A model generated the notes under the pieces. That model made no database searches, was not told where the DNA came from, and saw only the letters and a program-made list of their open reading frames with translations. Below, in pieces: positions 5,211 through 57,830 of a DNA stretch of 64,000 bases. Source of the stretch: Candidatus Saccharimonadales bacterium (lineage in GTDB: Bacteria; Patescibacteriota; Saccharimonadia; Saccharimonadales; JACQNP01); contig JBGSIS010000018.1 in assembly GCA_041742395.1 (NCBI GenBank), positions 39,505 through 103,504 of the forward strand. The letters run 5' to 3'. Position numbers and translations under genes: made by a program. Numbering within the stretch: the stretch's first letter is position 1; every line of letters begins with the position of its first letter.

Positions 5211-5261
5211 TTTATAGACTGGCTGGTAAAAAATAAGTACTACCAAGATTAAGAATAGATA

Positions 5262-6032: not shown

Positions 6033-6039
6033 TAAAGAT

Positions 6040-7135: not shown

Positions 7136-7222
7136 TTTATGGTGAATATTGAAAACTATAAAATTTAAATGAGTATAAACTTGTAACGATTTTTATTGTA
7201 AATATATAAGTAGGAGTAAATT

Positions 7223-7534: not shown

Positions 7535-7553
7535 TATAATTTGCCAATATAAA

Positions 7554-37508: not shown

Positions 37509-37633
37509 TTTTCCACCAAAGTTCAATTGTTTTCCACATATTTACAGATTAGATTCTGAACTGTGCATAACTTATACTGTTTACTGAAAAATTTGAATAC
37601 ATAATTCAACAACACTTATATACTTGTGGAAAA
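37509..37633. promoter_or_regulatory. DnaA-box cluster upstream of dnaA (oriC part 1 / dnaA promoter region)
   Basis: Four boxes match the TTATNCACA consensus. TTTTCCACC at 37509-37517 has 2 mismatches. TTTTCCACA at 37530-37538 has 1 mismatch. TGTGCATAA at 37562-37570 is TTATGCACA on the reverse strand, a perfect match. TGTGGAAAA at 37625-37633 is TTTTCCACA on the reverse strand. Confidence 0.6.
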
Positions 37634-37680
37634 GTGCCTTTATTTTGTATATTAGTAGTAACGGAAACGAAGGAGAGGTA

Positions 37681-39048: not shown

Positions 39049-39052
39049 TGCC

Positions 39053-39290
39053 TGTGTACAACATGTGTCTTTATTAAGTACAAGTCTGTTCATTAACTAT
39101 TTGTTTGTGCACAGTATTTATTTAATTTCATTACCATGTGTACATTTATCCAAGTTATACGTTAGTTATACGTTGCCTTCCAGGTATTTTGTACACACCC
39201 AAATTTCACGTTTCTTATCTTTAAAAAATCATTTTTACACATCTTCCACAGTAACTACTATTATAACTACTAATTAATATATAAAGGATT
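39053..39290. promoter_or_regulatory. DnaA-box cluster plus AT-rich tract between dnaA and dnaN (oriC part 2 candidate)
   Basis: Box-like 9-mers are TTGTACACA (39053-39061 on the reverse strand and 39189-39197), TTGTGCACA (39105-39113), TTTTACACA (39233-39241) and TCTTCCACA (39242-39250). An AT-rich stretch follows at about 39255-39290. Confidence 0.6.
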
Positions 39291-39295
39291 TAGTA

Positions 39296-40387
39296 ATGGA
39301 GCTTCAAGTAACCCAGGAAAATATCAACAAAGCATTATCGAGCGTATCACGCGTAGCTAGTACCCGTGGAACACTACCTATACTTTCAAATATTTTAATT
39401 AAAACAATCGGTACTAGGGTTAGTTTTTCGGCTACTAATTTAGATATTGCTATCACCCATAACATTGGTGCTAAGGTTAAAAAAGAAGGTTCAATTACTA
39501 TTCCCGCTAAACTAGTTCATGATTTTATTGGAAGTTTACCTAATAGCGTAATTAGCCTTAAATTAATCGAAAATAAATTATCCATTGATACTGATAAATA
39601 CAAGTCGACAATTAATGGTGTATCTGCAGAAGAATTTCCTGTTATGCCAGTTATTAATGATGGTAAAACATGGACAATAAATTCCAAGGATCTTAAACAA
39701 GCTTTGTCTCAAGTTATTGGTTCTGCTTCAAATGATGAGGCGCGACCAGTTCTTACTGGAGTTTATTTTAATTCTGTTGGTGGTGAAATGTTTGTAGTTG
39801 CTACTGACAGCTATAGACTAGCTGAGAAAAACATAATTTCAACACAGGAAGAAGTTAAAGTTCTTATCCCTGCTACTGCATTAATGGAATTACAAAGATT
39901 AATCGGTGATTACAAGGGTGAAGTTACTATAACGCATGATGATCAACAGGTTTTGTTTGTAGTTGGAGAGATTGAATTAGTAGCTAGATTAATTGACGGA
40001 AGTTACCCTGATTACAAGAAATTAATTCCAGCTAAGTTTGAGACTAAAGCAGTTATTAAAAAAGCCGATTTTGTGAATATAACTAAAGTGTCTTCCCTTT
40101 TTGCTAGAGAAAGTGCCGGTAGTGTTAATATTGAAGTTAGCGAAGAAGAAGGAACTGTTAGTATTCACTCTATCGCTTCACAACTTGGCGAAAACACAGC
40201 TAATGCCGATGCTAAAGTTAGTGGTGAAGGATCAATTACTTTAAATTCTAGATATATACTTGACGCTCTGGGTGCAATCGATGGCGATGAAGTTGAATTC
40301 TGCTTCAACGGTAAGCTAGAACCATGTGTTTTAAGAAATCCAAAGAATAAAGATTACGTACATATTATTATGCCTCTTAAAAGCTAG
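39296..40387 (+). CDS. dnaN: DNA polymerase III subunit beta
   Basis: 363 aa with a three-domain sliding-clamp pattern (LPILSNILI, TDSYRLA, LIDGSYPDY). It sits in dnaA-dnaN-recF synteny. Confidence 0.95.
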   Translation: MELQVTQENINKALSSVSRVASTRGTLPILSNILIKTIGTRVSFSATNLDIAITHNIGAKVKKEGSITIPAKLVHDFIGSLPNSVISLKLIENKLSIDTDKYKSTINGVSAEEFPVMPVINDGKTWTINSKDLKQALSQVIGSASNDEARPVLTGVYFNSVGGEMFVVATDSYRLAEKNIISTQEEVKVLIPATALMELQRLIGDYKGEVTITHDDQQVLFVVGEIELVARLIDGSYPDYKKLIPAKFETKAVIKKADFVNITKVSSLFARESAGSVNIEVSEEEGTVSIHSIASQLGENTANADAKVSGEGSITLNSRYILDALGAIDGDEVEFCFNGKLEPCVLRNPKNKDYVHIIMPLKS

Positions 40388-40407
40388 GGCTGTTAAAATC
40401 TATCTAG

Positions 40408-41457
40408 ATGATAACCAATATTAGACTGCAAAATTTTAGGTCTTATCTTGATAATTCTTTTGAATTTAGTAATGGGGTAAATATTATTGTAGGCCCTAAC
40501 GCTACCGGTAAGACAAATTTAATTGAGGCAATTTACCTAGTTGCTCGTAATAATTCATTTAGGGTTAAGGATATCGACTTAATAACCTTTGATGCGGATT
40601 GGTCAAGAGTAGATTCATATATTTCTGACACCGAAAGAACTGTTAAATTAGTAAAAGAAAACGATAGAGCCAGCAAGACTACAGTAATAGACTCTAAAGA
40701 ATATAAGAGACTACCAAAAGATAAATATTACCCAGTTGTTTTATTTGAACCTAGTCAGCTTAATATATTATCTGGCGGACCCGAAGGAAGAAGAAATTTA
40801 ATTGACGAACTGATATCACAAAAAGAAGTTTCATATATAACTACACTAAACAGATATAAAAGAACTTTAGCTCAAAGGAATGCTTTACTAAAAAGTAATA
40901 TAACGGACAAAAGCCAAATTTTTGTATGGAATACTAGATTAATGGAGCTTGCTAGTGAAATAGTAGGCCAAAGGCTCAGTTTAATTGAAGAAATAAATAA
41001 ATCAATAAGTGATACTTATTCTGAGGTAGCTGGTAAAAAGTATTTAATTGAACTTAGTTATGAAACTCAAATAAAAACAGATAATTACGCCCAAAACTTA
41101 TTTAATATTCTAGAAGTTAATTTAGACAAGGATATACTGAGAGGATTTACGTCGTATGGGCCACACAGAGACGATATAAAGATTTCTATTAACCATAACG
41201 ACTCATCTACTGCAGCTTCACGCGGCGAGGCTAGGACGATGCTTCTAGCCATAAAAACTTTCGAGATAGTTAACCTACTTAAGAACTATGAACAAAAACC
41301 AATTCTTCTATTAGACGATGTGTTTAGTGAACTAGATGGCCTAAGACGAAAAAAACTAACAAGCTTCCTTGAAAGTTACCAAAGTTTTATTACTACTACA
41401 GATGCCGATGTAATTCAAAGCAATATAAAAAGTTCTGAAATAATTACTACTAGCTAA
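40408..41457 (+). CDS. recF: DNA replication/repair protein RecF
   Basis: 349 aa with Walker A GPNATGKTNLIEA, the signature region SRGEARTMLLA and Walker B ILLLDDVFSELD. Confidence 0.9.
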   Translation: MITNIRLQNFRSYLDNSFEFSNGVNIIVGPNATGKTNLIEAIYLVARNNSFRVKDIDLITFDADWSRVDSYISDTERTVKLVKENDRASKTTVIDSKEYKRLPKDKYYPVVLFEPSQLNILSGGPEGRRNLIDELISQKEVSYITTLNRYKRTLAQRNALLKSNITDKSQIFVWNTRLMELASEIVGQRLSLIEEINKSISDTYSEVAGKKYLIELSYETQIKTDNYAQNLFNILEVNLDKDILRGFTSYGPHRDDIKISINHNDSSTAASRGEARTMLLAIKTFEIVNLLKNYEQKPILLLDDVFSELDGLRRKKLTSFLESYQSFITTTDADVIQSNIKSSEIITTS

Positions 41458-42029
41458 TAATCACCACGGTCTGGTGAATATTCCGTACTGTCTATGAAAT
41501 CAGATTCATAAACTTTTTTTCCATCTTTAGAAAGAATCACATTAACATTCTTGATTCCATCAAGTATCGCTTTTGCTTGATATTTATCTTTTCTGTTTAT
41601 AACCATCTCAAACTCTGCGGTACGAATAAGTGTATTAGGATCATCATAGTCACTTATTTTTATCGAACTAGTGGTAATACTAGATTCATTAATAAAATTG
41701 TTATTTTCTCTTGAATATAATGTTACGGCCGTCTTAATACCCTCTTCCTGATATTTTGTAACACCGAAATCAATAAGTTTAGAAAAACCTAGGTAAGTAG
41801 GTGTTTTTCCGATGTTTTCAAAGTTTTCTGGGCTTTTACCAACTGGATCTGACACCGTTTCACCAGAGCCCGGGTCATAATATTCATTAATTTCATCTGG
41901 TTTATTTCTTTGGCTATAGAAAATTAATCCAATAATCAAGAATATAATTAGGATAACTAAAATAATCACGATAATTAATCTACGTTTGTTAGGACTATTA
42001 TTTGAAAGATTACTATTTGGATATTGCAT
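41454..42029 (-). CDS. membrane-anchored hypothetical protein (last gene of the T4SS-like operon)
   Basis: 191 aa with an N-terminal TM (LIIVIILVILIIFLIIGLIFY). It overlaps the upstream gene by 17 nt and converges on recF with a 4-nt overlap. Confidence 0.5.
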   Translation of the reverse strand: MQYPNSNLSNNSPNKRRLIIVIILVILIIFLIIGLIFYSQRNKPDEINEYYDPGSGETVSDPVGKSPENFENIGKTPTYLGFSKLIDFGVTKYQEEGIKTAVTLYSRENNNFINESSITTSSIKISDYDDPNTLIRTAEFEMVINRKDKYQAKAILDGIKNVNVILSKDGKKVYESDFIDSTEYSPDRGDY

Positions 42030-43878
42030 AAATTCCTCCCGGTCTCATACTGCTAATTATTTGTTGTGGATCCCATTCTTTATCAGATGTATCTTTATGT
42101 CCAGAGTCTCCAACTAAGAATTTTCCACTAGGAGTAACTCCGCGAATTACTATAAAATGACCACCTGAGGTGAATGGCTTAGCGCCACTACCAGGGGTAA
42201 TTATTAATTTGCCTTGTTGTAGAGCTTGCGTTATTTGTGCTACGTCTCTATCTATTGGTTCTGCTTTGAGTCCCCATTGTTTAGCAACTACACTACCAAT
42301 TAACCAACTGCTTCCAGATCCTGAAACATACATTCCTTGACTTGCTGCATAGTCTGCCGTTTCTACGGGGGTTACTTTCTTGCCAGTTAGGGTGGAAATT
42401 ATCATGGCCATTGCCGAAGGCCCACAACCAGCAATGCCAATTGTGCTAGAGCTGTAAGGCTTGTCTTTCCAGGCCGGGTCATATTGACTGTATACTACAA
42501 AATTACCAATGTTTTGTCCTGCACCACCGTCTGTAGGGCAGGAAGCACTAGATGCCCCACCACCAGATTGAGAAGGCGCCGAACCGCCGTATGAAGCTAG
42601 AATCTCCTGGGCGAATTTAATTCTCCTGGGTATAGCAGTTACTCCAGCACCTTCCATGCGATCCTCGAAATCTGCTGTAGCTTCTTCTATTGTTGTGGTC
42701 TGTTTGAACTTTTCGATAAAATTCTTAACACCTGTAGGTGATGTATTATTCATATGCCACCATACCACTTCAAGTTGAGTACCCAATTCATATATCGGCG
42801 TATTTATGTTTGCATTTTTTGCGATATTTATTATTTTGCCTCCCGGAGTCCATTGAATTAATCCCCAACCTGCAGAACCAGCATCATTTGGGTTTTGGCT
42901 CCTTCCTCCAGGATCTTGAATATTTTCCGGATCAACACCAGACTCTATCATCATATTACCTAGAATTCCAGCTGCTTGTTCAGGGGATAATCCTTTACCT
43001 AAAAAGTAACGAAAAGCTTTCTCGGGGTTATCGTTTCCTATTAATTCGACAGAGCCAGATCCACCCACCGCGCATTGGCAGTTGCCGGTGTTTAGATTCT
43101 CTGTTGGAGTTTTTGTAGATCCAAGGGACGATGCTACTAGAGTTGATAATTTTTGAATGCCTGAAGTATTCGGGTGTAGACCATCCTCAAGAGCACCTGC
43201 CTTGTCAATTGTGGGTTGACTGTTTGGATTACCGCCGGGGTTTACTTGATTAAACCAATCAATTATACGGAAGTTTTTTGCGGTAGATTCAGTGGTTAGT
43301 GCCTGATTAAAAGGACCCATATAAGCTAAATTAGCTCCAGTCCATTTAGCAGTCCCGGCTAAGTTAACCCAAAATATTGGAGCATTCGGATTTATTTCGC
43401 GCACCGTGTCAATCATTTCACCTATGGGATTACCGTTTAATCCTCCGTTCGACCCTAGAGCTATGACTATTGCCTTAGCTCCTTGAATTGATGCTTTGTC
43501 ATCTTGAACAGCTTCTTTTGCTGGCTTTAGACTTCCCCCGGTTGTTGGCGTGTAACTACCTCCGCCGATCCATGAACGCCCTACTGAACCGTTAATTGTT
43601 GGTTGAAGCCCAGATTTAGCAAGTTCTGACCTGTAACTAGCTTCAGTGTATACAGATATTGAATCACCTAAAATATAAACGGAATCACCTGATTTTAAGT
43701 TCGATGGTGATGAATTTTGAGTACAAACTGTTTTTGCGCTATAAAAAGGATAGGTAAGGTCTTGACCTACATCGGCGTAAACAGTTGTGTTTAAACTAAG
43801 TAAAAAGAACGTCGTTGCTATCAATAAGTAGCTTATTTTTATGATATAATTTGGAATTAATTTAAAAATATCTTTCAT
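42013..43878 (-). CDS. secreted three-module cell-wall hydrolase: SGNH esterase-like + lysozyme-like + C39-like cysteine peptidase
   Basis: I prefer ATG 43878 (MKDIFKL..., signal peptide ending VYA/DV; TAATG overlap with the upstream stop) over the track start at 43905. The SGNH blocks are GDSIS, GRSW, GSNGG and DGLHPN. The lysozyme-like block is AAGILGNMMIESGVDPENIQ...GWGLIQWT. The C39_2-like Cys and His sites are GCGPSAMAMI and GGHFIVIRG. Confidence 0.7.
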   Translation of the reverse strand: MKDIFKLIPNYIIKISYLLIATTFFLLSLNTTVYADVGQDLTYPFYSAKTVCTQNSSPSNLKSGDSVYILGDSISVYTEASYRSELAKSGLQPTINGSVGRSWIGGGSYTPTTGGSLKPAKEAVQDDKASIQGAKAIVIALGSNGGLNGNPIGEMIDTVREINPNAPIFWVNLAGTAKWTGANLAYMGPFNQALTTESTAKNFRIIDWFNQVNPGGNPNSQPTIDKAGALEDGLHPNTSGIQKLSTLVASSLGSTKTPTENLNTGNCQCAVGGSGSVELIGNDNPEKAFRYFLGKGLSPEQAAGILGNMMIESGVDPENIQDPGGRSQNPNDAGSAGWGLIQWTPGGKIINIAKNANINTPIYELGTQLEVVWWHMNNTSPTGVKNFIEKFKQTTTIEEATADFEDRMEGAGVTAIPRRIKFAQEILASYGGSAPSQSGGGASSASCPTDGGAGQNIGNFVVYSQYDPAWKDKPYSSSTIGIAGCGPSAMAMIISTLTGKKVTPVETADYAASQGMYVSGSGSSWLIGSVVAKQWGLKAEPIDRDVAQITQALQQGKLIITPGSGAKPFTSGGHFIVIRGVTPSGKFLVGDSGHKDTSDKEWDPQQIISSMRPGGIYAISK

Positions 43879-46800
43879 TATTTTCCATCCACTGACCAAT
43901 GCCAAGATTCTTTAGGGAAATTTTTTAAGCCGTACTTAGATGCATTTGAACCAAGCCACGAAAAACCAGAATTATTTTTTCTTAGCGTGGATCCATTTTG
44001 AGCAAAATCTATGGCTAGGCCCATTTGATGATTTGAAAATCCGGGTCTAGCAGTAGGTGGACTACATACTGCCGGACAATTATGGCTAGCATATAGACTT
44101 TTCTGTTCATCCATGGTTCTATAGCCACCGCCTGTAAAATTTATTCCTGCAGCTCTAGCATCATTAAGAAGTTTGTCTAGGTTGCCTGAAATTTGAGAAT
44201 TAGTATCAATCCCTTGAACATCGCAGACTCTAATTTTAATAAGATTTCCTTCTTTATAGCCGTCTTTTACACCTAGGTCTTTACCTGCTTGACAAGGAAT
44301 ATTTGAAGTATCACCGCTAACGATAGTGCTACTTAATAGAGTATCTTCAGTTGCTGAACTGTTAGACGAAGAGTTACCGTCTATGTCGTCATCGTAGGTT
44401 CCGTCAAACAACATTGATCCTGCTTCTTCTACAGCAAGTTCAAGTAGACATGGGTCCGGCTGTAGCGGAACGTTGAATGGCATTTTATTGCCTTCGCCAA
44501 AGTCAAAGTCGTTTCCGAGGACTGGTTTACCGTATGAATCTGCATTATCAGTCTTATTTTGTTCTCTTTCGTCTGCCGGTAAATCGCACTGATATCTTTC
44601 TCTTAAGACGTCTGGATCCATTCCGTCTCCGTTATTGTCGGTAAAAACAGGATGATCAGCAGGAAGTCCAAAATTTAATACGCCAAATGGATTTACGTTA
44701 CGGTCATAGGCACTGACTTTTTTGGAAAAAATATTGCTTATTCCACTAGTAAGAGAGCTACTACTGAAAACCGAAGACATTTTTTCGGCCATTGTCGTCA
44801 AATCCGTAGGAGAGCTTAGAACAGCTTGAGAGGTTAAGCTTTCTGGAACGTCAGGGGAAAAATACCTGGCGAACATATTCATGTTTCGTAATTCGTATCC
44901 CCTTTGCTCTTGCATATCATTTTGGATGGCAACAATTTGTTGCTCGTTAAGATAACCACCACCAATAGTTTTATCTTCATCTGTCCTGGTGCCAATTCCG
45001 CCTCCAGTGGACGCAGATAAAGAATCCATTCCTGCATAAGTTGCGTCGTAAGCATCTGCACCTTCTTCTGTGCCCGTTATAGAGAATCCTATTACTCTGT
45101 TAAGTAAGCTTTCAAATGATGACATAAAAACCCTGCTAATACCAAGTGATTCCATTGCTCCACCAATAAGTTCATCAATACCAAGTGAACTGGTTATCGC
45201 AGAAGATAGCTTGTCGGTAAGATCTATTACGCTATTTACAGGCGAGTTTTCGTAAGCATCACTAACTTTGGCAAGGCCCTCCCAAGCTGGATTATTAGTA
45301 AAAGCTGTTTTATCTTGAAGAACTCTCTTTTCCTTACACACCACCTGTCCTGGCTCTAGTTTTTCCCCAGGATCATTAGTATCATTATCTCCATTACAGT
45401 CTCGGCTGACTGATTTTGTTGTGTCTATTTTTCCAGCTGCAGACTGAGACACAGGGGAAGACTGAAAGTTTTTAAATGTTTCATTAAGTATTCTAACGTC
45501 TGCTTGGTCAAAATCTTCACCGGACCTAATCTGGTCAGCTGCGCTTAAGATAAAAGTTGCGTAGCCAATATATTGGCTAGTAAGCTTATCGTTAATAACT
45601 ATATTAATACTTCCGTCATTTACTGACTTAACTACTTGAGAAATCGTATCAATTAGACCAATAGCAGCAATACCTCCAGTAAGTATCTTTTTAGTAGAGA
45701 GGCTTAGTATTCTTTGACTGGTTTCTTGACCTGTTTCCTTTGCAATTAACTCTGCAGCATCGTCGGCCGCACCATCTCCTAAATCTGCGACAGCATCGGC
45801 TGCTTCATCGCCATCAAGCGCCTTAAGTTTGTCTTTTTGGTCTTCACTGGCGCCACTGTCATTTTTATCGTCATCAGGATTACTGTCGCTTTTTCTGTCT
45901 TTTTCAGCAGTGTCACCTTCCTTGATCTTTTTACAGTCATCACCACCTTCTATAAGACAACCAATATAATCACTAGTTTTTTCAGAAACATAACCAATAG
46001 TATTTCTTACGGCTTTTTGTTTAAAGGCGATTTTTTTCTCAGCGTAGCTTTGCCGAGTTTTTTCAAAAGGTTTCCAGTTAGGTACTCCATAAAATCTTTT
46101 TGCAACATATCTAAGTCTTGCTCTTTTGAAAACTTGACCAGATTTAGTTTCTTTTTTGGCGAACTCCCTAATACTCTGTCTAGCTTCTTTGGCTGTGAGT
46201 GGTTGAGGATCCCCGCCATTATATGAAAATGTCCAGTTGTCCGCTTTTAGAGTATTTCTTGTAATACTACTAACTCCACCTGACCTAGACTTTATTTCCA
46301 TATTATAGTTAGACTTAAGATTGTTCTCAATCTTGGCCCCCTCCCAATTAACATAGAGTGTTTTTAAGGGGCTTCTACTTAAATATACAAACCTAGAATC
46401 ATTTCCATCGAAAGCTTCTGAAGTAACTCCCAGAGTCTTTAGCATTAAATACTTATTCATGTAATACTGCGTGCGTTTTTCAATAGCATACTGAGGTACT
46501 TGGCCAATTTGGTTTTCTATACTTTCAACAACATGGGTAGCTACAAAGGCTGGCAAAAATGCCATAATTGCAAAAACCGCAGATAGAATAAGAGCACCAA
46601 TTCCTCCGCCAACAACCAAGCCTCTTCTTCCATTTTTTTTCTTGGAAGAGCCATTTGCTCCGCCAGTGTAGAATCCGCCTTCTTCTAGGTCGTCTTTTTC
46701 TTGGTTCTCATCTGAATCATCATTGTCTGAATCATTCTCTTTTTCCTCTAGTTCCTCTGGAGAATAATTATCCTTAAGAATCTTGTCGAATTCTCTATCG

Positions 46801-46880
46801 ATATCAGATTGAGGAGATTCGTCACTAAAACGTGGTTTATCTTCTTCCGAATCAGGTTTTTGTAATGTATCGGTTCCCAA
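43878..46880 (-). CDS. 1000-aa membrane-anchored protein with a C-terminal VanY/M15-type D-Ala-D-Ala carboxypeptidase domain (PrgK/TraG-role candidate)
   Basis: It has an acidic N-terminus, one TM (GGGIGALILSAVFAIMAFLPAFV) and a long extracytoplasmic region. The C-terminal motifs SNHQMGLAIDF (SxHxxGxAxD) and ESWHWS (ExWH) are diagnostic of peptidase M15B/VanY. Confidence 0.7.
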   Translation of the reverse strand: MGTDTLQKPDSEEDKPRFSDESPQSDIDREFDKILKDNYSPEELEEKENDSDNDDSDENQEKDDLEEGGFYTGGANGSSKKKNGRRGLVVGGGIGALILSAVFAIMAFLPAFVATHVVESIENQIGQVPQYAIEKRTQYYMNKYLMLKTLGVTSEAFDGNDSRFVYLSRSPLKTLYVNWEGAKIENNLKSNYNMEIKSRSGGVSSITRNTLKADNWTFSYNGGDPQPLTAKEARQSIREFAKKETKSGQVFKRARLRYVAKRFYGVPNWKPFEKTRQSYAEKKIAFKQKAVRNTIGYVSEKTSDYIGCLIEGGDDCKKIKEGDTAEKDRKSDSNPDDDKNDSGASEDQKDKLKALDGDEAADAVADLGDGAADDAAELIAKETGQETSQRILSLSTKKILTGGIAAIGLIDTISQVVKSVNDGSINIVINDKLTSQYIGYATFILSAADQIRSGEDFDQADVRILNETFKNFQSSPVSQSAAGKIDTTKSVSRDCNGDNDTNDPGEKLEPGQVVCKEKRVLQDKTAFTNNPAWEGLAKVSDAYENSPVNSVIDLTDKLSSAITSSLGIDELIGGAMESLGISRVFMSSFESLLNRVIGFSITGTEEGADAYDATYAGMDSLSASTGGGIGTRTDEDKTIGGGYLNEQQIVAIQNDMQEQRGYELRNMNMFARYFSPDVPESLTSQAVLSSPTDLTTMAEKMSSVFSSSSLTSGISNIFSKKVSAYDRNVNPFGVLNFGLPADHPVFTDNNGDGMDPDVLRERYQCDLPADEREQNKTDNADSYGKPVLGNDFDFGEGNKMPFNVPLQPDPCLLELAVEEAGSMLFDGTYDDDIDGNSSSNSSATEDTLLSSTIVSGDTSNIPCQAGKDLGVKDGYKEGNLIKIRVCDVQGIDTNSQISGNLDKLLNDARAAGINFTGGGYRTMDEQKSLYASHNCPAVCSPPTARPGFSNHQMGLAIDFAQNGSTLRKNNSGFSWLGSNASKYGLKNFPKESWHWSVDGK

Positions 46881-46920
46881 TTTTCCAGACCTTCTTTTTA
46901 TTTACGAAATAACATAATTA

Positions 46921-48846
46921 TTATACACCAGGCGATAATCTATTAGCTAAGTCAACCGTACCTTCAGTATTCATTGCACCTAGCTCGATTTGTCTTACCT
47001 GATCAGGATTGGTAGTTATTAGTCCTGTCTCAGTCGGACTAGCTGCAATTTGAATATGTACGTGACTTTGACCGGCAAAGAAAAGTCCTTGCCCCACTGG
47101 GAACTGGCCTAACCTTTTCTTCTCTTCGCTGGTAAGTTTGAATACGTCAGATAAAACATCTACCGCTGATGAAGATTGCTTAAGTAGTATTTGCATAGAA
47201 GCATTGGCGACAATTGCCCTACCCATTCTTGAGCCCATAAAATCTTCTACGTCCTGAGAAATGGTAGTTATTCCAAGATTGTACTTCCTAGCTCGTTTAG
47301 CCAAACTAAACAAGAAGTTGGCCGAATCTTCATACTTCATCAGTTGCCAGGCCTCATCTACTATTAAGATTCTTTTCTTTTGATCAGATTTTGTCTTGTT
47401 CCAAATGTAATTTAAAACAATATACATAGCCACTGGCCGTAATTCATCCTCTAAATCTCGAACATTGAAGACTACTAGTTGGTTGTTAATGTTTATATTG
47501 CTTTGCTGAGAAAAAATACCAGCAAATGTGCCCGAAGTATATTTTCTTAACCTTTGAGCAAGCTGAGGGCCAGTACCGCCCATATGAAGCAGAGTATCGT
47601 ATAGGTCATTAATGGTAGGTGGTTGAGATCTATGGGTGAGCGGATCGTTGGTAATTCCAGCTTTTGCATAGGTCTCAATCAAAGCAGCATCTAAATCGGC
47701 TTCCTCTACAGGGTTAAGAGCTGGAGATACTACTGTTCCAGAACCACTTGCAGCCATTTGGGCCTGCGCGCCACCCATCATTAAGCGGAGTAATCCATGA
47801 AGTGTTATAAGGTTATTTCTAAGTGCATCTTCAGAGTCAGCAGTATCGATGACTTCTGGAATATCAAAAGGATTTATTCTAGTTGACGAACTAAGACTTA
47901 GTTTTACATATGCCCCACCAACCGCTTCAGCCATTCTCTGGTATTCATTTTCCGGATCGATGATAAACACCTCTGTTCCGAACATCATACTTCTCAGAGC
48001 CTCTAGTTTAACAGCGAAAGATTTACCAGCTCCAGATTTTGCAAACACAACTGCGTTTCCGTTTTCAAGTGAGAACCTATCAAAAATAACCAAACCAGAG
48101 TTGTGCATATTTATTCCATACAAGATTCCGTTTTCTTGACTTAAGTCGGCAGAAGTAAATGGAAAACTGGTGCTAAGGGCGCCAGTACTAAAGTTTCTTC
48201 TAATCTGTAATTGATCGCTAAATTGAGGTACTGTGCTATTAAAGGCTTGTTCTTGTTGGGAAGTGGCTACTTTGGAATAAACTAACTGCTGTCCTAACAT
48301 CGATTCAATCTTGTGAGTGACATAATCTAGTTCGTCCATAGAGTTGGCATAGACTGTCATATAAAGCCCAAATCGGAAGAATCTTTCTTCTCCTACCTGA
48401 AGTTTATCTCTCATTTCTTCTGCATCGATAATTGCTGCTTGTGTGCCTGGGTCTCGGACTCGACCTTTTTCGGCATTAATCTGAATGTCGGCCTCTAGCT
48501 GACCTACTTTTTTCCTTAGATTTTCCATTACAACTTGGCTTTCTACTGGGTAGATGAACATAGAAATATCCATAACTTCATCTAGGTTTACCATTGTAGA
48601 TATCCATCCGGTATTAACCGACCTTGGATAGCCATATACGTAAAACGTTCTAGCCATTCTAGTACCGAGCTGGAAAAAACCTGTACTAAACTCTATCGAG
48701 CTTGGTGCTATAAAGTCTCTGAGAGCTGTAACTCCTTTCATAAAGGCAGCTCTAACTTCTTGTTCTTCTCGAACGCGTTGTTGTTGAGCTATGGCGACAG
48801 GGTCATTAAGATTTTGAGGATAGTCGTTTTTTTTGCCAAAAGCCAT
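46921..48846 (-). CDS. virB4: VirB4/TrsE/PrgJ-type T4SS ATPase
   Basis: 641 aa with Walker A AKSGAGKSF and Walker B RILIVDEAWQL. The N-terminal domain pattern (RTFYVYGYPRSVNTGWIS...DISMFIYP) is typical of Gram-positive VirB4 homologues. Confidence 0.85.
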   Translation of the reverse strand: MAFGKKNDYPQNLNDPVAIAQQQRVREEQEVRAAFMKGVTALRDFIAPSSIEFSTGFFQLGTRMARTFYVYGYPRSVNTGWISTMVNLDEVMDISMFIYPVESQVVMENLRKKVGQLEADIQINAEKGRVRDPGTQAAIIDAEEMRDKLQVGEERFFRFGLYMTVYANSMDELDYVTHKIESMLGQQLVYSKVATSQQEQAFNSTVPQFSDQLQIRRNFSTGALSTSFPFTSADLSQENGILYGINMHNSGLVIFDRFSLENGNAVVFAKSGAGKSFAVKLEALRSMMFGTEVFIIDPENEYQRMAEAVGGAYVKLSLSSSTRINPFDIPEVIDTADSEDALRNNLITLHGLLRLMMGGAQAQMAASGSGTVVSPALNPVEEADLDAALIETYAKAGITNDPLTHRSQPPTINDLYDTLLHMGGTGPQLAQRLRKYTSGTFAGIFSQQSNININNQLVVFNVRDLEDELRPVAMYIVLNYIWNKTKSDQKKRILIVDEAWQLMKYEDSANFLFSLAKRARKYNLGITTISQDVEDFMGSRMGRAIVANASMQILLKQSSSAVDVLSDVFKLTSEEKKRLGQFPVGQGLFFAGQSHVHIQIAASPTETGLITTNPDQVRQIELGAMNTEGTVDLANRLSPGV

Positions 48847-49724
48847 TACTGTAAATCCCTTTCTAAGTTAGGCTGTGGAGCGTTACCTTCACCCTTGGTT
48901 ATTATTGGTACGCTAAGTTCATCAAAGTTTTTGAGCTGTTGTCTGGTGGCGGTATCAGGGTTATATACATCATAGTAAAGCTCGATTAATTCTTGAGTAT
49001 CTAGAGGTATACTTTTTATACCAGCATCTTGAAGACCTCCAAGAACAGCTTGAACTCGATTTCTAAGTTCTTCTTTGGCTTTTTCTAAATCATGTTCATT
49101 GATAGTTACGTGTTGCTCTTTACTAGCAAACATATCTTTGAGTCCTGTAAAAAAATTCTTACTTTGGGTAATAGCTTGCTGAACGTCGGCAACCGGGAAA
49201 AACGGAATAATTACGTAAAATTTCTTATCCATAATATTTGTTTGTTGAGCTAAAGCATCAATATATCCAATGTAGTCTTCCATTAGTAATGCCAAAAGCA
49301 TATTATCGTGTTCTGACCGTATTTTATCTAGCTTTTCGATATAGGGTCTTAGATCGACCTTTCTAGAGTTTACAAATATTTGAACTGGGAAATAAAGTGA
49401 ATTCAAAAAGCCTTGATAGGCAAATTCAACTGAATCTCTTTCTTGGGGGCTCATTAAATCAAAGTTTATAGATTTTGCCATTACGACTGCTCGGAACGAA
49501 CCGTCGTTCATTATAACGATACCATCGCGAATTTCGGCAATTTGTAGGGTATTTTGAGTACTATCAGGATTACTTTTTATCTGGGGTTGAGCTTGAGGTT
49601 GATTTGTTCCGGTAACTGGTACTTGGCCTGGGTACTGCTGTTGTGGTTGCTGGGGTGCAGAATAACCTCCATTGTCGTATGGAGTTTGTGTGTTCGGTGC
49701 TTGATTTGGAAAATCAGGATTCAT
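48846..49724 (-). CDS. T4SS-associated hypothetical protein (Q/P-rich N-terminus; VirB4 N-domain-like core)
   Basis: 292 aa whose stop overlaps the virB4 start by 1 nt. The core LQIAEIRDGIVIMNDGSFRAVVMAKSINFDLMSPQERD...FPVQIFVNSRKVDL resembles the N-terminal, non-ATPase domain of VirB4-type proteins. There is no Walker motif. Confidence 0.4.
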   Translation of the reverse strand: MNPDFPNQAPNTQTPYDNGGYSAPQQPQQQYPGQVPVTGTNQPQAQPQIKSNPDSTQNTLQIAEIRDGIVIMNDGSFRAVVMAKSINFDLMSPQERDSVEFAYQGFLNSLYFPVQIFVNSRKVDLRPYIEKLDKIRSEHDNMLLALLMEDYIGYIDALAQQTNIMDKKFYVIIPFFPVADVQQAITQSKNFFTGLKDMFASKEQHVTINEHDLEKAKEELRNRVQAVLGGLQDAGIKSIPLDTQELIELYYDVYNPDTATRQQLKNFDELSVPIITKGEGNAPQPNLERDLQ

Positions 49725-49754
49725 TAATTTATTAGCCCACCTCCGAGTAAAGAT

Positions 49755-50711
49755 TTAGCGAAGCGATATCACAACCTCGTCATTATCTTCGTCAATTTCT
49801 CTAACAGCACGACGTTCGTAAGTTGCAACACTTAAGTCGTTGTTAATTGCAGGGTTAATTATAGCAGGTTTATCGGTTTCTTTCACTTTAGGATGACTGT
49901 TTTCGTGTGGTTTTTCAGAAACATTATTAACGCTGTTTTTGTTGTCGTTTTTGTGGGGTTTTGGTAACGGTGTGATTTCTGTGTCGAGAATCGCTTCTGG
50001 AGCAAACCAATCAATATTATCTTCTTCAACTGAAGAAGGCAAAGTTGCCATGTGTGACATTTGATCTCTTTGGGCTTGCTTAGTTTTTGCGATGTGCTCA
50101 GAAAATTGCTGAGAAATTCCACTATCTAGCTGGTCAAATGGAGTGGCAATAGTCTCAGACGAAATAATTGGGTCGTCAGTACTGACATCGACAAGTCTGT
50201 CTGTAGGAGTAGTCATCCCAACGTTAGCAATCGGGCTTTGATAAGCTGGTTGATGTTGATTAAACATGTTCACACCTACATTTTTAACAGCCCACCCTCT
50301 AGTATCTAGTGTGTTTGCGAGTGCTTTTAGTCTGTTTTGAGCTTCTTCTCTTGAAAAATCTTTAGTAAGTTGGCGTTCTATTTTTTTAGGAACGGTAATA
50401 GTTACTAGTTCCTTCATGCCGGTTTGGTCCCAAATTCTCCTGCGAGGCTTAAAGAAAAATCTAACTTTAGCTAGTAGCCAAATTTCATTTGATTGGTCAT
50501 GCCCAAACGGAGCTGCCAAAACTGCAAAGAAAATTAAAGAAGGTAATAAAAAAATAATAAAATACTTTATTGGCCCAGGAGCAGTTAACATTAAATAACC
50601 AACAAATAGCTGAACTACAACTAAAATTAAGTAAATAAACTGTCTAAAAGACAGAGGTCCTAGAAGTTTATCCTCGGCCTCAATATCTTGAATAACCTTA
50701 TACTGTCCCAT
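49755..50711 (-). CDS. PrgI/VirB3-like T4SS membrane protein
   Basis: 318 aa. The N-terminal MGQYKVIQDIEAEDKLLGPLSFRQFIYL followed by two TM helices matches the PrgI-family signature. The long C-terminal tail is of unknown function. Confidence 0.6.
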   Translation of the reverse strand: MGQYKVIQDIEAEDKLLGPLSFRQFIYLILVVVQLFVGYLMLTAPGPIKYFIIFLLPSLIFFAVLAAPFGHDQSNEIWLLAKVRFFFKPRRRIWDQTGMKELVTITVPKKIERQLTKDFSREEAQNRLKALANTLDTRGWAVKNVGVNMFNQHQPAYQSPIANVGMTTPTDRLVDVSTDDPIISSETIATPFDQLDSGISQQFSEHIAKTKQAQRDQMSHMATLPSSVEEDNIDWFAPEAILDTEITPLPKPHKNDNKNSVNNVSEKPHENSHPKVKETDKPAIINPAINNDLSVATYERRAVREIDEDNDEVVISLR

Positions 50712-50756
50712 ACTAAGGATAAGTATTACTGAAAATCAGCTATCTATCAAGTGGTA

Positions 50757-51515
50757 CTAAAGTAAATTGTCTTCGGGGCTATTGCTTGCTTGACTAATTC
50801 TATCAATTTCTTCCTGAGCTGCAGCTACAGCCTGTTCATGTTTTTCTACCCTGCTGTTTGCTCTATTTCTTCTTCCGTCTCTCCATCGGGAAAGAATTGG
50901 TTGTCTTGCAGCTCTACCTGTCCGCTTTATAACCCTTTTGGATGCATTTCTGGTTCTTTTTTGTTCTGCGTTTTCTCCCATTGGAGTATTTGCTCTAGAC
51001 TCAATTTTTTTAAGTCGAGCTTCTCTTGGAGAAACATTTCCTGTTATTTGATCAATGTCATGTCTAGCGACTTCTACTCTTCCTTTTGCTCTAGAAGATA
51101 AGCTCATTGAGTTGCTTTTTTCACCTCCGAAGGCTTTTACGGTGATATCTCTATCTGCTTGTTCGACTTCTCTTTTCCATCTCTTGCTTTCTAGTCTGCG
51201 CGCCATTATTCTCTCTGGGATAGTTCTAGTACTTGTCCCCTCATCTTCTATATTAGTTCTACCGGGAGTTTTTACTAAATTACCATCACTGTCAAATTGC
51301 TTTCTTCCAAGAACATCTTTTACAACTTCTTGCGGTTCTTCAACTATAGCTCCAGTTGCTACATCACCTAAATGCCCATAAAGTTCATCTTTATGGTCCA
51401 TTCTATCAATAACTTCTCTTGATGAGTCAATAGCTGACTGTGAAGCCAATATTCTACTATTAAGTTCGTCTATCCTAGACTGTTCATCACCTGTATTTGT
51501 TTCTGGGTTTGACAT
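50757..51515 (-). CDS. highly charged, Arg/Lys-rich soluble hypothetical protein
   Basis: 252 aa with no hydrophobic segment. The basic C-terminal half is RTRNASKRVIKRTGRAARQPILSRWRDGRRNRANSR. It lies inside the T4SS-like operon. Confidence 0.5.
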   Translation of the reverse strand: MSNPETNTGDEQSRIDELNSRILASQSAIDSSREVIDRMDHKDELYGHLGDVATGAIVEEPQEVVKDVLGRKQFDSDGNLVKTPGRTNIEDEGTSTRTIPERIMARRLESKRWKREVEQADRDITVKAFGGEKSNSMSLSSRAKGRVEVARHDIDQITGNVSPREARLKKIESRANTPMGENAEQKRTRNASKRVIKRTGRAARQPILSRWRDGRRNRANSRVEKHEQAVAAAQEEIDRISQASNSPEDNLL

Positions 51516-51561
51516 GCTGTTATATTATCACAAATATAGAGAAAAGTCAACGAATCAAGAC

Positions 51562-53349
51562 TTAAATATGGTTAGGGTCAGGTCTTTCGTAAGTTCTAGC
51601 TTCTCTCTCAGCTTCTTTACCGTACTTTACAGTTCTATCATATTGTCTAGTTCCTGCTGCTTGCTCAGCAGCTGTCCAGTTAGTAGTCACATGAGCTACA
51701 TAATTAGGGTCGAACCTAATGTTTGTGTTGTCCATTTTCTCTCTATCAAGAATCTCAGTATCTTGACGAATATAATCGGTTGAATCATGCTGCGAAAGAG
51801 TTCCTGGTCCACCTCCGACTGCACCGATACTCTCGAGTCTATTAATTTGATCTACAATAGCATTTCTAGATTCTCCGGTGGCATTAGGTAGCATTGCTTT
51901 AAGTTCTTTATGTGCAACGGAAGCATTATGCATTCTTGCGACGTTACCACTGGATAGGTCCGCTGCTATTTCATTACCCCAGCCATTTATTGATGCTGGT
52001 TGAGAATTTGCAAGCTGATAAAGTGAAGTTCTAGCAGCTCCAGCAGTAGCTGTACTTGCTCCAATATCGTACCTGCCGGCGTTTCTTGAATGAAACTGAA
52101 AACTTCCTTCAAGATTTTCTTTCATGGCTGTATTATCTCCGGCGAGTCTATTCATTCCTCTATCAATGATACCGCTATTACCCGCAGAAATTGCTCTGCT
52201 TTTATTTTGGGCGAGGGTGGTTAGTGCACCTTGTGCGTTTGCTCTGCTAAATCCAACGGCTTTAGCACCAGCAAGAGCTCTGTCTCGTTTCTTTTTTGCA
52301 TCTCCGGCAGCCATACCTCCGTTTATCCAATCTTGCATCAGTTCGTCAGCAGCTTGTGAAGCACCTGCAGCTGAACCTCCACTAAGAGCCATCACTGCGT
52401 TAGCATCATCATTAAACTGTAATTTATTAAGAGCAGGGTTCTTCAACGCTTCTTCTGCGGCGGTTTGGCTGGACAAATCTAAAGCTTGATTGCCTCTTTC
52501 GCCAAATCCATACAATCCTTTAGCCCCAACTCCTATGCCACCACCCACTCTGTTTACTCTTCTAGTAAATGCGTTTCTTTCACTGAATCGACTACCTGCC
52601 TTAAAGTCAGTCAAATTTTTAGCTTGGGTTTGTTGTCTTCTGTTGCGAAGTCTATCAAACGCACCCTTGGACTTATTATTAATAGTTCCAGTAAGAGTTT
52701 GAAATACTCCACCCGCCAGCTGGAAAGTCTTTGGAATAAGGTAAAACGGACCAAAAACACATGCAATAACAAAGAAGAAATTTATGATATTATCAAAAGC
52801 TGAAAAACTTTCACTATCTGCTCCTACTCCTGCGACTACTGATGCTAAGACCCTACCGGTTGCTAGTAATCCCAAAATGATTGGATAGACTAGAAGTAGT
52901 TTAAAATAGCTGTCCCACCACATTTTCCACCATTTTTCGGTTCCTGGTAATATCCACGCAACTAAAGCTAATGGCGAGATGATAAGTAAAGCCACAATAG
53001 CAACTTGCCTGAATAGTAATAACCCAAAGGCAATTAGAATTCCAAGTAATGCAATTCCTGCTGTTGCTAGTACGCCACCAGCTGCTAAGGCGAATCCCCC
53101 AACTGCAAGTCCTGCAGCAATTGCAGAAAAAGCTCCTAATCCAGAAGCGCCCTCCATTTGAGATAATATATTTGATAGCGTTAAACTCTCTGCTCCTCCA
53201 AAAGGTGCATATATTAGCGCCTCTATTCCGTACGCGATATTGTTAATTACAACTATAAGGCCAGTAAATAGGAACCAGGATAATTGAATTAAAATAACTG
53301 CTGCTACTAGTCTCGGGACTATTTTTTTTACAGTATATGCATCAAACAT
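51562..53349 (-). CDS. VirB6/TrbL-like polytopic T4SS membrane protein
   Basis: 595 aa. The N-terminal region of about 230 aa has about 6 hydrophobic helices (Gly/Ala/Leu/Ile-rich), followed by a soluble C-terminal domain of about 350 aa. It sits in the position and has the topology of VirB6/TrbL/PrgH-type channel proteins. Confidence 0.55.
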   Translation of the reverse strand: MFDAYTVKKIVPRLVAAVILIQLSWFLFTGLIVVINNIAYGIEALIYAPFGGAESLTLSNILSQMEGASGLGAFSAIAAGLAVGGFALAAGGVLATAGIALLGILIAFGLLLFRQVAIVALLIISPLALVAWILPGTEKWWKMWWDSYFKLLLVYPIILGLLATGRVLASVVAGVGADSESFSAFDNIINFFFVIACVFGPFYLIPKTFQLAGGVFQTLTGTINNKSKGAFDRLRNRRQQTQAKNLTDFKAGSRFSERNAFTRRVNRVGGGIGVGAKGLYGFGERGNQALDLSSQTAAEEALKNPALNKLQFNDDANAVMALSGGSAAGASQAADELMQDWINGGMAAGDAKKKRDRALAGAKAVGFSRANAQGALTTLAQNKSRAISAGNSGIIDRGMNRLAGDNTAMKENLEGSFQFHSRNAGRYDIGASTATAGAARTSLYQLANSQPASINGWGNEIAADLSSGNVARMHNASVAHKELKAMLPNATGESRNAIVDQINRLESIGAVGGGPGTLSQHDSTDYIRQDTEILDREKMDNTNIRFDPNYVAHVTTNWTAAEQAAGTRQYDRTVKYGKEAEREARTYERPDPNHI

Positions 53350-53351
53350 AA

Positions 53352-54407
53352 TTATTCTTTACTAACCGCTTGGCCAATTATCATTATTAATGCAATTACA
53401 ACTAGAGCTAAACTGGCTATGTTTCTCATATAACTCCAAGCTTGCTTTAATTTAGGATCAGTGTATTGTTCTGGCTGTAAATCTAATAAGTCATCAACTG
53501 CTCCAGCGATTCCTCCACTTCCTTTAGTTCCTCCAGTCAAGACGCTATCAATACCTCCAATCATTCCGCACAGCAACCAGTCCAAGTTGTCGTTGTTGTT
53601 ACTTTCGCAGGTTGCCTGTTGTGCTTCTGTGTTTTCAGAATTACTACCAGTATCTGAACTTTGTTTCACAATAGCTGAATACTTATCAGCTTTCTGATTC
53701 ATTTGTTGTGCAATTGTATTACAAGACATTCTTTGGTCATTTCTGCCGTCTCCATCAAGTCCGAAGCCAACTGGCACAAGACCATCTTCAAAAATGTACT
53801 TCTTTGTTGTTGTGTTGCCGTTTGCATCAACAATTTTTACACTATCTCCACTTTCGTTTTCAGAAGAAGAACACTCTTTATTAAAAGCGGCAATTAAAGC
53901 TGCGTATTGTGCTTCAGCGCCTATCCCTCCAGTACCTATTTCAAACTTGTCTTTTTGATAAGAAGATATTGAAGACCTAACTTCGTTTTTACCTTTTTTT
54001 AATATAAAATCATTTTTCTCTTTCACGTAGATACCCGTATCAAGTAGAAATTCAACAGGATCTATCTTGGCATTTTTAAATAAGTTTTTAATGTCAGAGT
54101 TAAGGTTTTCACACGAAACTCTTCCATCTTCAGATTTTTCAATTAGCCACCCAGAATCTACTACATGATTAGGGTCAAATAAACCGTCTTTAAAGATATA
54201 CCCTTTTTCAATATCTGAAACACTTAATTCTTGTCTAAATCCTTGTTCAGTTGAACATGAAGATATTGTCAATGTTGCATTCCAAGCTGTCGCTTGTTCT
54301 GTCGGTGATGGTGCTGCACTTGCTGTTTCAATTTTTAGTAGTGGAAAAATTAGGGAAAACAAAATAAACAAAGGAAAAACTATTCCAAAAAGCTTGTGTT
54401 TTGTCAT
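53352..54407 (-). CDS. secreted protein with a C-terminal TM anchor (first gene of the T4SS-like operon)
   Basis: 351 aa with a signal peptide (LLKIETASA/AP), several Cys residues and a C-terminal helix (IASLALVVIALIMIIGQAV). Confidence 0.5.
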   Translation of the reverse strand: MTKHKLFGIVFPLFILFSLIFPLLKIETASAAPSPTEQATAWNATLTISSCSTEQGFRQELSVSDIEKGYIFKDGLFDPNHVVDSGWLIEKSEDGRVSCENLNSDIKNLFKNAKIDPVEFLLDTGIYVKEKNDFILKKGKNEVRSSISSYQKDKFEIGTGGIGAEAQYAALIAAFNKECSSSENESGDSVKIVDANGNTTTKKYIFEDGLVPVGFGLDGDGRNDQRMSCNTIAQQMNQKADKYSAIVKQSSDTGSNSENTEAQQATCESNNNDNLDWLLCGMIGGIDSVLTGGTKGSGGIAGAVDDLLDLQPEQYTDPKLKQAWSYMRNIASLALVVIALIMIIGQAVSKE

Positions 54408-54527
54408 TACTCGTAAATTATATGTTAATTATTTATCCTAAGCAATCAGTTAGTAAGATGTTTTAAATATAAAAAAACTAATCTATAATTAGAATAGTAA
54501 TTTTATGAAATACAGAAATAAATTATC

Positions 54528-55028
54528 GTGAACCAAGAAAACAGCAATCAGCCAGTTAACTACGACTTTATAACCAGTCAAGGCGGTGGCATGGAAACCA
54601 AGAAACCTAAGGATAGAAAACTTATAGTTATAATTGTATTGTCAATAGTTACTATATTAATGACTATCTTTCTAATGTTGGCTACTAAAAACTCAACTAA
54701 AGAAGTAACTAGAACTGATGAAATTGTAACTTCGAAGCACATAAGGCTAGTTAATGAGGGTAATTTCTCGGAAGCAATTATTCTGCATGCTGGCTCACAA
54801 GAAATATCTGAAGAAGTATATAAATATTTTTGGGGAAACGTTATGACTGGTCGTTACGATTTTGCGAAGTGTAACTTTAGTAAAAATCCAGAAAAGGCAG
54901 AAGACTCATTTATATATAAAGTAGAGTGCCCCTTGAAAAACGATTCTACGCAAATGAGGGTAATAAAATATAAAATTGCTAACAGTAGTGGCTTAATAGA
55001 GAGCATTACTGATTTGGGTGAAGAGTGA
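54528..55028 (+). CDS. membrane-anchored hypothetical protein
   Basis: 166 aa with a GTG start and one TM (LIVIIVLSIVTILMTIFLML). It is divergent from the T4SS operon and lies upstream of the pilin array. Confidence 0.45.
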   Translation: MNQENSNQPVNYDFITSQGGGMETKKPKDRKLIVIIVLSIVTILMTIFLMLATKNSTKEVTRTDEIVTSKHIRLVNEGNFSEAIILHAGSQEISEEVYKYFWGNVMTGRYDFAKCNFSKNPEKAEDSFIYKVECPLKNDSTQMRVIKYKIANSSGLIESITDLGEE

Positions 55029-55104
55029 GAATAGATAACATGAGCTCATATTTACTTCTCCCCTTATCCATGATTAAATCAAATTTAATTGGCAGATTGT
55101 TTAT

Positions 55105-57310: not shown

Positions 57311-57323
57311 ATTAGGAGAAAAA

Positions 57324-57770: not shown

Positions 57771-57830
57771 AGTTGAATATTAAAGGTGTTTTATGATATA
57801 AACTTCATAGAACTTTAAGAAAGGAACAAG

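Follow-up and report, generated by a model that had tools for sequence, protein, structure and literature searches.

A Probable Core Chromosomal Type IV Secretion System Beside the Replication Origin of a Saccharimonadales Bacterium

We describe a type IV secretion system (T4SS) in a 64,000-nucleotide stretch of DNA from a Candidatus Saccharimonadales bacterium (GenBank assembly GCA_041742395.1, contig JBGSIS010000018.1), which is called the window below and numbered from its first letter. Nine open reading frames (ORFs) on the minus strand at 41454-54407, packed head to tail, make up a monoderm-type T4SS operon in a Saccharibacteria genome, and six VirB2-like pilin genes lie on the other strand, divergent from it. 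We consider it very probable that this is the core chromosomal T4SS of the Saccharibacteria. The machine would most likely mediate an essential host-directed step of epibiotic growth. The locus type is already known: it has been described since 2018-2020, and its essentiality on the host was shown in 2023.

Organization of the T4SS Locus

Read from 41454 to 54407, the operon encodes proteins of 191, 630, 1000, 641, 292, 318, 252, 595, and 351 aa, with junctions, in the same order, of -17, -28, +40, -1, +30, +45, +46, and +2 nt. The last operon gene (191 aa) is convergent with recF, and the two stop codons share 4 nt at 41454-41457. An initial annotation of the window, made without database searches, had already proposed nine packed minus-strand genes converging on recF with a 4-nt overlap, and all nine are present with junctions of -28 to +46 nt; its genes stand, but it had overlooked the six divergent pilin genes. 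As the pilin array belongs to the system, the T4SS spans ~41454-58256 and comprises at least 15-16 genes.

The VirB4 ATPase is 81-90% identical to the top 120 of >8,000 database matches, and the named proteins among the top matches are annotated as Candidatus Saccharibacteria, Saccharimonadales, or Patescibacteria. A genome scan using one genome per species retrieved 586 VirB4 relatives, of which the best 80 loci were analysed for the comparisons that follow.

VirB4 Is Encoded as Two Genes Next to a PrgI-Like Protein

The 641-aa protein (46921..48846, minus strand) is a VirB4 ATPase matching NF045971, the CD1110 family of NCBIfam, at E 1e-105 (354 bits against a cutoff of 325) over profile positions 182-734, that is, without the N-terminal domain; it also matches Protein Data Bank (PDB) entry 4AG5 at E 8.5e-46 and the NCBIfam model of Mbov_0397 VirB4 from a Mycoplasma integrated conjugative element (ICE) at E 4e-76. 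Walker A (AKSGAGKS, residue 269) and Walker B (ILIVDE, residue 493) are both in place, as had been noticed from the start.

The missing part is found in the neighboring gene (48846..49724, minus strand), a TrsD-like 292-aa protein equivalent to the VirB4 N-terminal domain, which aligns with the CD1110 VirB4 profile at positions 2-120 (E 1.6e-6) and with the TrsD model (E 1.5e-5), both below the curated NCBIfam cutoffs. Since the 292-aa protein covers profile positions 2-120 and the 641-aa protein covers 182-734, VirB4 is encoded here as two coupled genes; these are joined via a TAATG overlap and are predicted to be translationally coupled. The initial annotation had listed the 292-aa protein correctly but without a name, missing its identity as the TrsD/VirB4 N-terminal module.

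Next in the operon is an extended PrgI-family (VirB3-like) membrane protein of 318 aa (49755..50711, minus strand) with two transmembrane (TM) segments, which matches PF12666 (PrgI) at E 8e-10 and 39.5 bits, above the cutoff of 27, in agreement with its first description as PrgI/VirB3-like. PrgI is found in 74/80 loci, and residues 1-220 are conserved, including the extension.

Two Adjacent Genes Encode a Probable Extended VirB6

The 595-aa protein (51562..53349, minus strand) is a VirB6/TrbL-like core with 5 TM segments and an all-alpha ARM-like C-terminal domain, and the 351-aa protein preceding it (53352..54407, minus strand) begins with a signal peptide and ends in a TM helix, with a Cys-containing ectodomain between them (TM segments at residues 6-24 and 330-348). 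The two genes are joined by TAA-TT-ATG (+2 nt). In 18 related loci a single ORF is matched first by the C-terminal part of the 351-aa protein and, only a few residues further on, by the 595-aa protein starting at its residue 1; 45 of the 64 VirB6-like ORFs in the relatives are longer than 800 aa, and most relatives have one ORF of 800-1,300 aa. We therefore read the two proteins, by comparison with these relatives, as probable halves of a single extended VirB6. What had been annotated as a secreted anchored protein beside a VirB6-like protein thus keeps both features, but the two are not separate components. Because five other species (L030, L052, L053, L072, and L079) share the identical fission at the same boundary, the split is not a sequencing error, and it appears to be lineage-specific.

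Assignment of the core to VirB6 draws on several weak signals. Its sequence gives a weak CD3337/EF1877 match (E 0.007), and one homologue matches TrbL at 1.5e-4. An AlphaFold2 (AF2) model of the 595-aa protein, with a predicted local distance difference test (pLDDT) score of 79, has a helical membrane core followed by the ARM-like C-terminal domain, and its N-terminal ~230 aa align in Foldseek to R388 TrwI/VirB6 (8rtd_L) with a probability of 0.96 and a template-modelling score (TMt) of 0.42-0.48, a match short of significance by its E value. The TM core is kept in 62/80 loci, and topology and position fit a VirB6-like polytopic protein. PF19590 is a precomputed assignment on most VirB6 homologues; our own Pfam scans did not return it even at E 5, and it was left unused.

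The 351-aa half is far more divergent, with only its last ~90 aa conserved in relatives; it has no Pfam or PDB match, and a protein-database search returned only itself. It was also considered as a pilin-like protein, which was rejected (local pilin hidden Markov model [HMM], E 0.17).

A Divergent Array of Six VirB2-Like Pilins

Six VirB2/TrbC-like pilin genes follow one another on the plus strand at 55105-55914, 55915-56559, 56559-56933, 56930-57310, 57324-57770, and 57831-58256. All six products match PF18895 above the cutoff (E 4e-8 to 6e-20), and three also match PF04956; the pilins were additionally examined by local HMM and alignment. The array favors a machine that builds a pilus over a mere channel in the membrane. 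Its first pilin (55105-55914) carries a Cys-rich N-terminal ectodomain of ~190 aa that is conserved in almost no relative, and the second (55915-56559) has two tandem pilin domains and no evident signal peptide. The DNA of the array holds the repeat families D1 and D2. The first pilin also matches the Mycoplasma ICE model for the Mbov_0395 pilin-like protein at E 7e-8, so that pilin-like proteins may not be unique to Patescibacteria among wall-less and monoderm T4SSs.

The intergenic region that separates the operon from the array (54408-55104) is ~0.7 kb long and AT-rich (GC 0.31), and it contains the first gene of the divergent pilin operon, encoding a 166-aa bitopic protein (54528..55028, plus strand) with a TM segment at residues 32-50. 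A promoter and terminator scan of this region found sites no more numerous than in shuffled sequence.

Cell-Wall Hydrolases and Small Proteins

Two very large hydrolases had been proposed in the operon, and domain searches bear this out. The 1000-aa membrane-anchored protein (43878..46880, minus strand) has an acidic N terminus, a TM segment at residues 96-114, and a C-terminal VanY/LdcB-type carboxypeptidase domain (PF02557, VanY, E 4.7e-12, with LdcB and VanY matches in the PDB). The 630-aa secreted or anchored hydrolase (42013..43905, minus strand) combines an SGNH/GDSL-like domain, a phage-tail lysozyme, and a C39/CHAP-like cysteine peptidase; Pfam returns Phage_lysozyme2, Peptidase_C39_2, and a weak sub-threshold GDSL match, and the lysozyme domain matches phi29 gp13 (3CSR) at E 3e-7. 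This protein would play a VirB1-like role. Its make-up is modular in the relatives, with the lysozyme domain present in 42 loci, the SGNH/GDSL-like domain in 22, and the C39-like peptidase in only ~7-10. The 1000-aa and 630-aa genes are the positional equivalents of SEML1_0007 and SEML1_0006 of Southlakia epibionticum (ML1), respectively.

Three small proteins lack a family. The 191-aa product of the last operon gene (41454..42029, minus strand) is bitopic, with a TM segment at residues 18-36 and an ectodomain of ~150 aa, as expected from its earlier description as a small anchored protein; it gives weak sub-threshold family matches only, is detected in 4/80 loci, and yields a single-sequence AF2 model (pLDDT 52.6) too poor for a fold search. 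It resembles the 166-aa protein only in the TM helix. The third, a soluble protein of 252 aa (50757..51515, minus strand), is basic and without a TM segment, as first annotated: its isoelectric point (pI) is 9.35, with an acidic N-terminal part and a basic C-terminal part of pI 11.1. It has no match to a Pfam or NCBIfam-type family, a PDB entry, or a nucleic-acid-binding domain, and an iterative HMM search among positional equivalents gathered 3 members in 81 loci (that is, 2 relatives in 80). TM-less ORFs with ~20% Lys+Arg recur between VirB6 and PrgI in many loci (for example L005, L011, L032, and L049), their sequence barely conserved.

Position and Conservation Among Relatives

The locus occupies the same site in nearly all relatives that can be compared. 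Downstream sequence reaches 10 kb in 61 loci; in 60 of these the operon converges on recF, followed by dnaN and dnaA, and recF lies a median 6.0 kb after VirB4 (5.5 kb in the window). Of the 51 loci whose sequence extends 10 kb upstream, 46 carry the divergent pilin array, as a rule made up of 5-6 genes; TrsD and VirB4 are neighbors in 80/80 loci, and hsp20 is found in 33 of those with the full upstream flank. The distribution is therefore not patchy, and the identifiable proteins, with their VirB4 and PrgI matches, belong to T4SS families; both points had been named beforehand as ones on which the first interpretation could fail. Together, the gene orders support vertical inheritance of the operon beside the replication origin, as far as comparison of genomes can indicate it.

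Conservation differs sharply between components. Median protein identity is 82% for VirB4, 76% for DnaA, 70% for TrsD, 63% for DnaN, and 48% for RecF, the VirB4 value being biased upward because the loci were chosen by VirB4 similarity. It falls to 41% for PrgI, 40-51% for the pilins, 34% for the VirB6 core, and 25-32% for the hydrolases. The hypervariable parts are surface-exposed, namely the VirB6 ectodomain, the pilin N termini, and the domain set of the hydrolases, and the 191-, 252-, and 166-aa proteins are barely conserved.

Two loci depart from the common arrangement. On a 4.8-kb contig (L080), recF directly follows VirB4 with no hydrolase genes between them, and one locus (L051), the sole full-flank locus without recF within 10 kb, has its pilin match on the other side. 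Either could reflect rearrangement, a second copy, or faulty assembly.

The surroundings of the operon in the window are those of a replication origin. Pfam matches place dnaA, dnaN, and recF at 37624..41457 on the plus strand and rnpA-yidC-jag at 35522-37266, on the opposite strand and the other flank of the origin. Allowing one mismatch, 3 of the 7 DnaA boxes in the window cluster at 37530-37633, ~100 bases around the dnaA start, with two just before the start and one overlapping the start codon. Over the full 64 kb, these boxes are fewer than shuffled sequence would give (7 vs. ~19), and only the local cluster ahead of dnaA is informative. On the other side, the pilin array is followed by hsp20 (58410..58904, minus strand) and then by tRNA-Ser at 59542, a right-hand boundary shared with S. 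epibionticum.

Absence of Mobility Genes and Composition of the Locus

Searches for mobility genes, coupling proteins, and paralogues covered the 64-kb window. No type IV coupling protein (T4CP) or relaxase family was found in the 16 locus genes, and neither a relaxase family nor an integrase among the ~60 scanned ORFs of the window. A repeat search of the flanks returned only chance-sized matches of 17-29 nt, and there is no tRNA at the locus borders; the tRNAs sit beyond hsp20, in synteny with ML1. Apart from the T4CP fragment described below, the window holds no second VirB4 and no T4CP paralogue. The initial annotation had anticipated these results in stating that the operon has neither coupling protein, relaxase, integrase, or flanking repeats nor a second ATPase. 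Given that the locus encodes neither a T4CP nor a relaxase, we do not read the machine as conjugative.

Base composition points the same way. The GC content of the operon is 0.393, close to dnaA (0.389) and hsp20 (0.414), vs. 0.35 for the rest of the window and a window mean of 0.36, and is unlike that of the AT-rich block of surface-polysaccharide genes at 14-23 kb; GC at third codon positions (GC3) likewise resembles that of dnaA and hsp20. Spot counts made earlier (0.50 at 52261 and 0.25 at 18061) are exact, and the composition is core-like as they had suggested.

T4CP-like sequence occurs in the window just once, as a truncated VirD4/TraG-like C-terminal fragment of 215 aa outside the T4SS (5262..5909, plus strand; PF12696, E 3.7e-5), 36 kb from the operon. 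The fragment matches plasmid T4CPs down to E 3e-22 in tblastn searches and has Walker B but no Walker A. It had been recognized as a decayed coupling-protein fragment in the first reading, correctly. The idea of a domesticated, non-conjugative apparatus, also put forward there, is supported by the absent mobility genes, the fixed position, and the T4SS families of the proteins, and published studies conclude likewise (PMC10633639, PMC12102498).

A Model for the Machine and Its Alternatives

In T4SSs, hexamers of VirB4 bind to VirB3 and VirB6 at the membrane. Where VirB11 or a T4CP is missing, pilus biogenesis is supported by the ATPase VirB4; F pili are assembled with no VirB11, and ComB, Ptl, and Brucella VirB operate with no T4CP. 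Monoderm T4SSs cross the wall by means of large anchored hydrolases. With this background, we propose that the locus is very probably a derivative of monoderm conjugation machinery, of the mating-pair formation class FATA (MPF-FATA) or similar, from which the DNA-processing parts were lost. The two-polypeptide VirB4 (TrsD N-domain plus ATPase) would dock on the PrgI/VirB3-like and VirB6-like proteins, so that split VirB4, split VirB6, and PrgI would form a membrane translocon, and the two anchored hydrolases would open the epibiont's own wall and possibly that of the host. VirB4, as the only ATPase present, would drive extraction and polymerization of the six pilins, presumably Sec-exported and VirB2-like, into a pilus or conduit reaching the host bacterium. 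The host-directed step that such a machine would most likely mediate could be contact combined with protein transfer to the host, or import of host macromolecules or nutrients; reviews raise both effector delivery and nucleotide or DNA uptake as roles of the T4SS (PMC12857230, PMC11665869).

Several points weigh against this proposal. Substrate, direction of transport, and existence of a pilus are all inferred. No VirB8-like component was found in the locus, where the bitopic candidates of 191 and 166 aa have no family matches. The Foldseek matches to VirB6 have E ~0.9, which is not significant, and the VirB6 sequence matches are weak. The absence of a coupling protein and a relaxase holds for the 64-kb window; a survey of Patescibacteria reports that their T4CP homologues are often encoded far from virB4 (PMC12102498). 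Finally, the 80 loci were picked as the best VirB4 matches, and the synteny is one among Saccharimonadales-level relatives rather than all Patescibacteria.

A machine that chiefly exports Sec-dependent or cytoplasmic effectors or toxins, after the manner of Ptl, Brucella VirB, or the bacteria-killing T4SS of Xanthomonas, is a credible though unlikely alternative. Ptl and Brucella VirB also work independently of a T4CP, according to PMC12857230 and the Patescibacteria survey (PMC12102498), the array of small secreted proteins was likened to Ptl by McLean et al. in 2020 (PMC7427843), and the operon hydrolases carry wall-degrading domains; yet this "secreted array" consists of VirB2-type pilins rather than toxin subunits, and no effector or immunity gene is recognizable in the locus.

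We regard it as unlikely, too, that the machine is chiefly an importer of the ComB or Ced kind, pulling host nucleic acids or macromolecules into a nucleotide-auxotrophic epibiont. Like Helicobacter pylori ComB and archaeal Ced, the locus is without T4CP, relaxase, and VirB11, and VirB4 gives partial matches to CedB and CedD, but these are far below cutoffs and reflect the shared ATPase fold. A strongly basic cytoplasmic protein (252 aa) is encoded in the operon, but it is unconserved (the 3 members in 81 loci), and no nucleic-acid-binding domain was found. Published observations also bear on import: ComEC is dispensable while the T4SS is essential, which has prompted speculation in print (PMC11665869), and a 2026 preprint reports feeding on host RNA and tubular structures at the parasite-host interface that may be T4SS pili. 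A more elaborate version, which we hold to be quite improbable, is a pilus-tipped importer in which the VirB6 ectodomain, the Cys-rich pilin domain, and the shuffled hydrolase domains would act as host-specific receptors and VirB4 would pull host nucleic acid or other polymers inward to the 252-aa protein. If true, it would explain the feeding of nucleotide-auxotrophic Saccharibacteria, an idea already in the literature.

That the locus is an ICE, or a recently decayed one, lying by chance beside recF is highly improbable: although the VirB4, PrgI, and TrsD families are defined on conjugative elements of Firmicutes and Mycoplasma, and the T4CP fragment and a weakly Replic_Relax-like winged helix-turn-helix (wHTH) protein lie 33-36 kb away, position and order are the same in 60/61 species-level relatives, the borders are without integrase, relaxase, T4CP, tRNA target, or flanking repeat, GC and GC3 are like those of dnaA and hsp20 with VirB4 more conserved than DnaA, the T4CP fragment lacks Walker A and sits beyond the origin region and a polysaccharide cluster, and the Replic_Relax match is below cutoff and confined to the helix-turn-helix (HTH) part.

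Other Elements of the Window

The T4CP fragment belongs to a small islet of mobile or defence-type genes at 2372-8249 that also contains two Fic proteins, a PIN protein, an HTH-SocA/Panacea antitoxin, a CopG-like protein, and the winged-helix protein. The last is of low GC (0.26), and its Replic_Relax match scores 23.6 bits against a cutoff of 25.3, over the wHTH part only. The islet probably derives from an integrated element, now reduced to a remnant, that has no relation to the T4SS operon.

Between the islet and the origin, a surface-polysaccharide cluster at 9810-34832 encodes epimerases and dehydratases, GT4 glycosyltransferases, a UDP-glucose dehydrogenase, a Wzt ATP-binding cassette ATPase, and a Wzy-like ligase. 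The GC content of its centre, at 14-23 kb, is 0.25-0.31, well below the window mean.

Comparison with Known Systems

Few machines are known to be essential to Patescibacteria living as epibionts; the Saccharibacteria T4SS is among them (PMC11665869), and the window adds one more environmental Saccharimonadales example of it. Our further additions are modest: the VirB6 fission, the shuffled hydrolase domains, and the division between a conserved core (VirB4 and TrsD) and hypervariable surface modules. Such comparative details could guide the choice of constructs or targets and leave existing knowledge unchanged.

McLean et al. (2018 preprint; Cell Rep 2020, PMC7427843) described a T4SS region conserved among Saccharibacteria, with VirB4, VirB6, and VirB2 and an array of 4-6 small secreted proteins, for which they drew the analogy to Ptl. 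Wang et al. (Cell 2023, PMC10633639) delimited the T4SS of S. epibionticum as SEML1_0006-0019, which resembles Gram-positive conjugative systems, has a series of essential pilins and no coupling or relaxase proteins, and in which nearly all genes are essential in co-culture by transposon sequencing. Gene order in the window matches SEML1_0003-0020 of ML1 except for the block between PrgI and the pilins, the T4SS locus itself corresponding to SEML1_0004-0019: both have dnaA, dnaN, and recF on the plus strand, small exported proteins, a lysozyme/Cys-peptidase hydrolase, a giant protein with a DD-peptidase tail, VirB4, a TrsD-like protein of ~293 aa, PrgI, and a VirB6-like protein on the minus strand, six pilins on the plus strand, hsp20 on the minus strand, and tRNA-Ser, and both clusters are without T4CP and relaxase. 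The ML1 pilins SEML1_0014-0019 are the equivalent of the array at 55105-58256. Between PrgI and the pilins, ML1 encodes a pair of large VirB6-like proteins of 998 and 1088 aa together with an NTF2-like (VirB8-like) protein, in place of which the window has the basic 252-aa protein and a VirB6 split into 351 and 595 aa. The first hydrolase domain is SGNH/GDSL-like in the window and glucosaminidase-like in ML1, and one small gene precedes recF in the window where ML1 has two. Essentiality has been shown for ML1 only.

The Patescibacteria-wide survey of Quinonero-Coronel et al. (Microb Genom 2025, PMC12102498) finds VirB4 affine to the MPF-FATA class, TrsD as its most frequent partner, PrgI-type VirB3, VirB6, VirB2 arrays of 2-11 genes, rare relaxases, and proximity to dnaA and dnaN. 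With the loci of that survey and of TM7x, the window shares an MPF-FATA-related VirB4, adjacent TrsD, PrgI, a candidate VirB6, VirB2 arrays, the lack of a relaxase, the absence of a T4CP from the cluster, and the dnaA/dnaN proximity, and we see no essential difference. VirB6 fission and modular hydrolase variation go unmentioned in the sections of the survey examined.

ComB, Ced, Ptl, and Brucella VirB offer a looser likeness, drawn by analogy, in that VirB4 would be the sole or main ATPase of a non-conjugating, chromosomal machine with one physiological task. These systems are diderm or archaeal with other envelope parts, and homology is limited to VirB4, VirB2, VirB3, and VirB6.

Closer in composition are the conjugative T4SSs of the MPF-FATA class, such as pGO1 Trs, pCF10 Prg, the CTn2/CD1110 family, ICEBs1, and the Mycoplasma ICE with Mbov_0395/0397. 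With them the locus shares the VirB4 family, PrgI/VirB3, TrsD, a VirB6-like protein, large multidomain wall hydrolases, and a pilin-like protein that matches the Mycoplasma ICE model. Unlike them, it has no T4CP, relaxase, oriT-processing genes, or integrase and holds a fixed chromosomal position, and it possesses a VirB2-like pilin array, which is normally absent from Gram-positive systems (PMC12857230).

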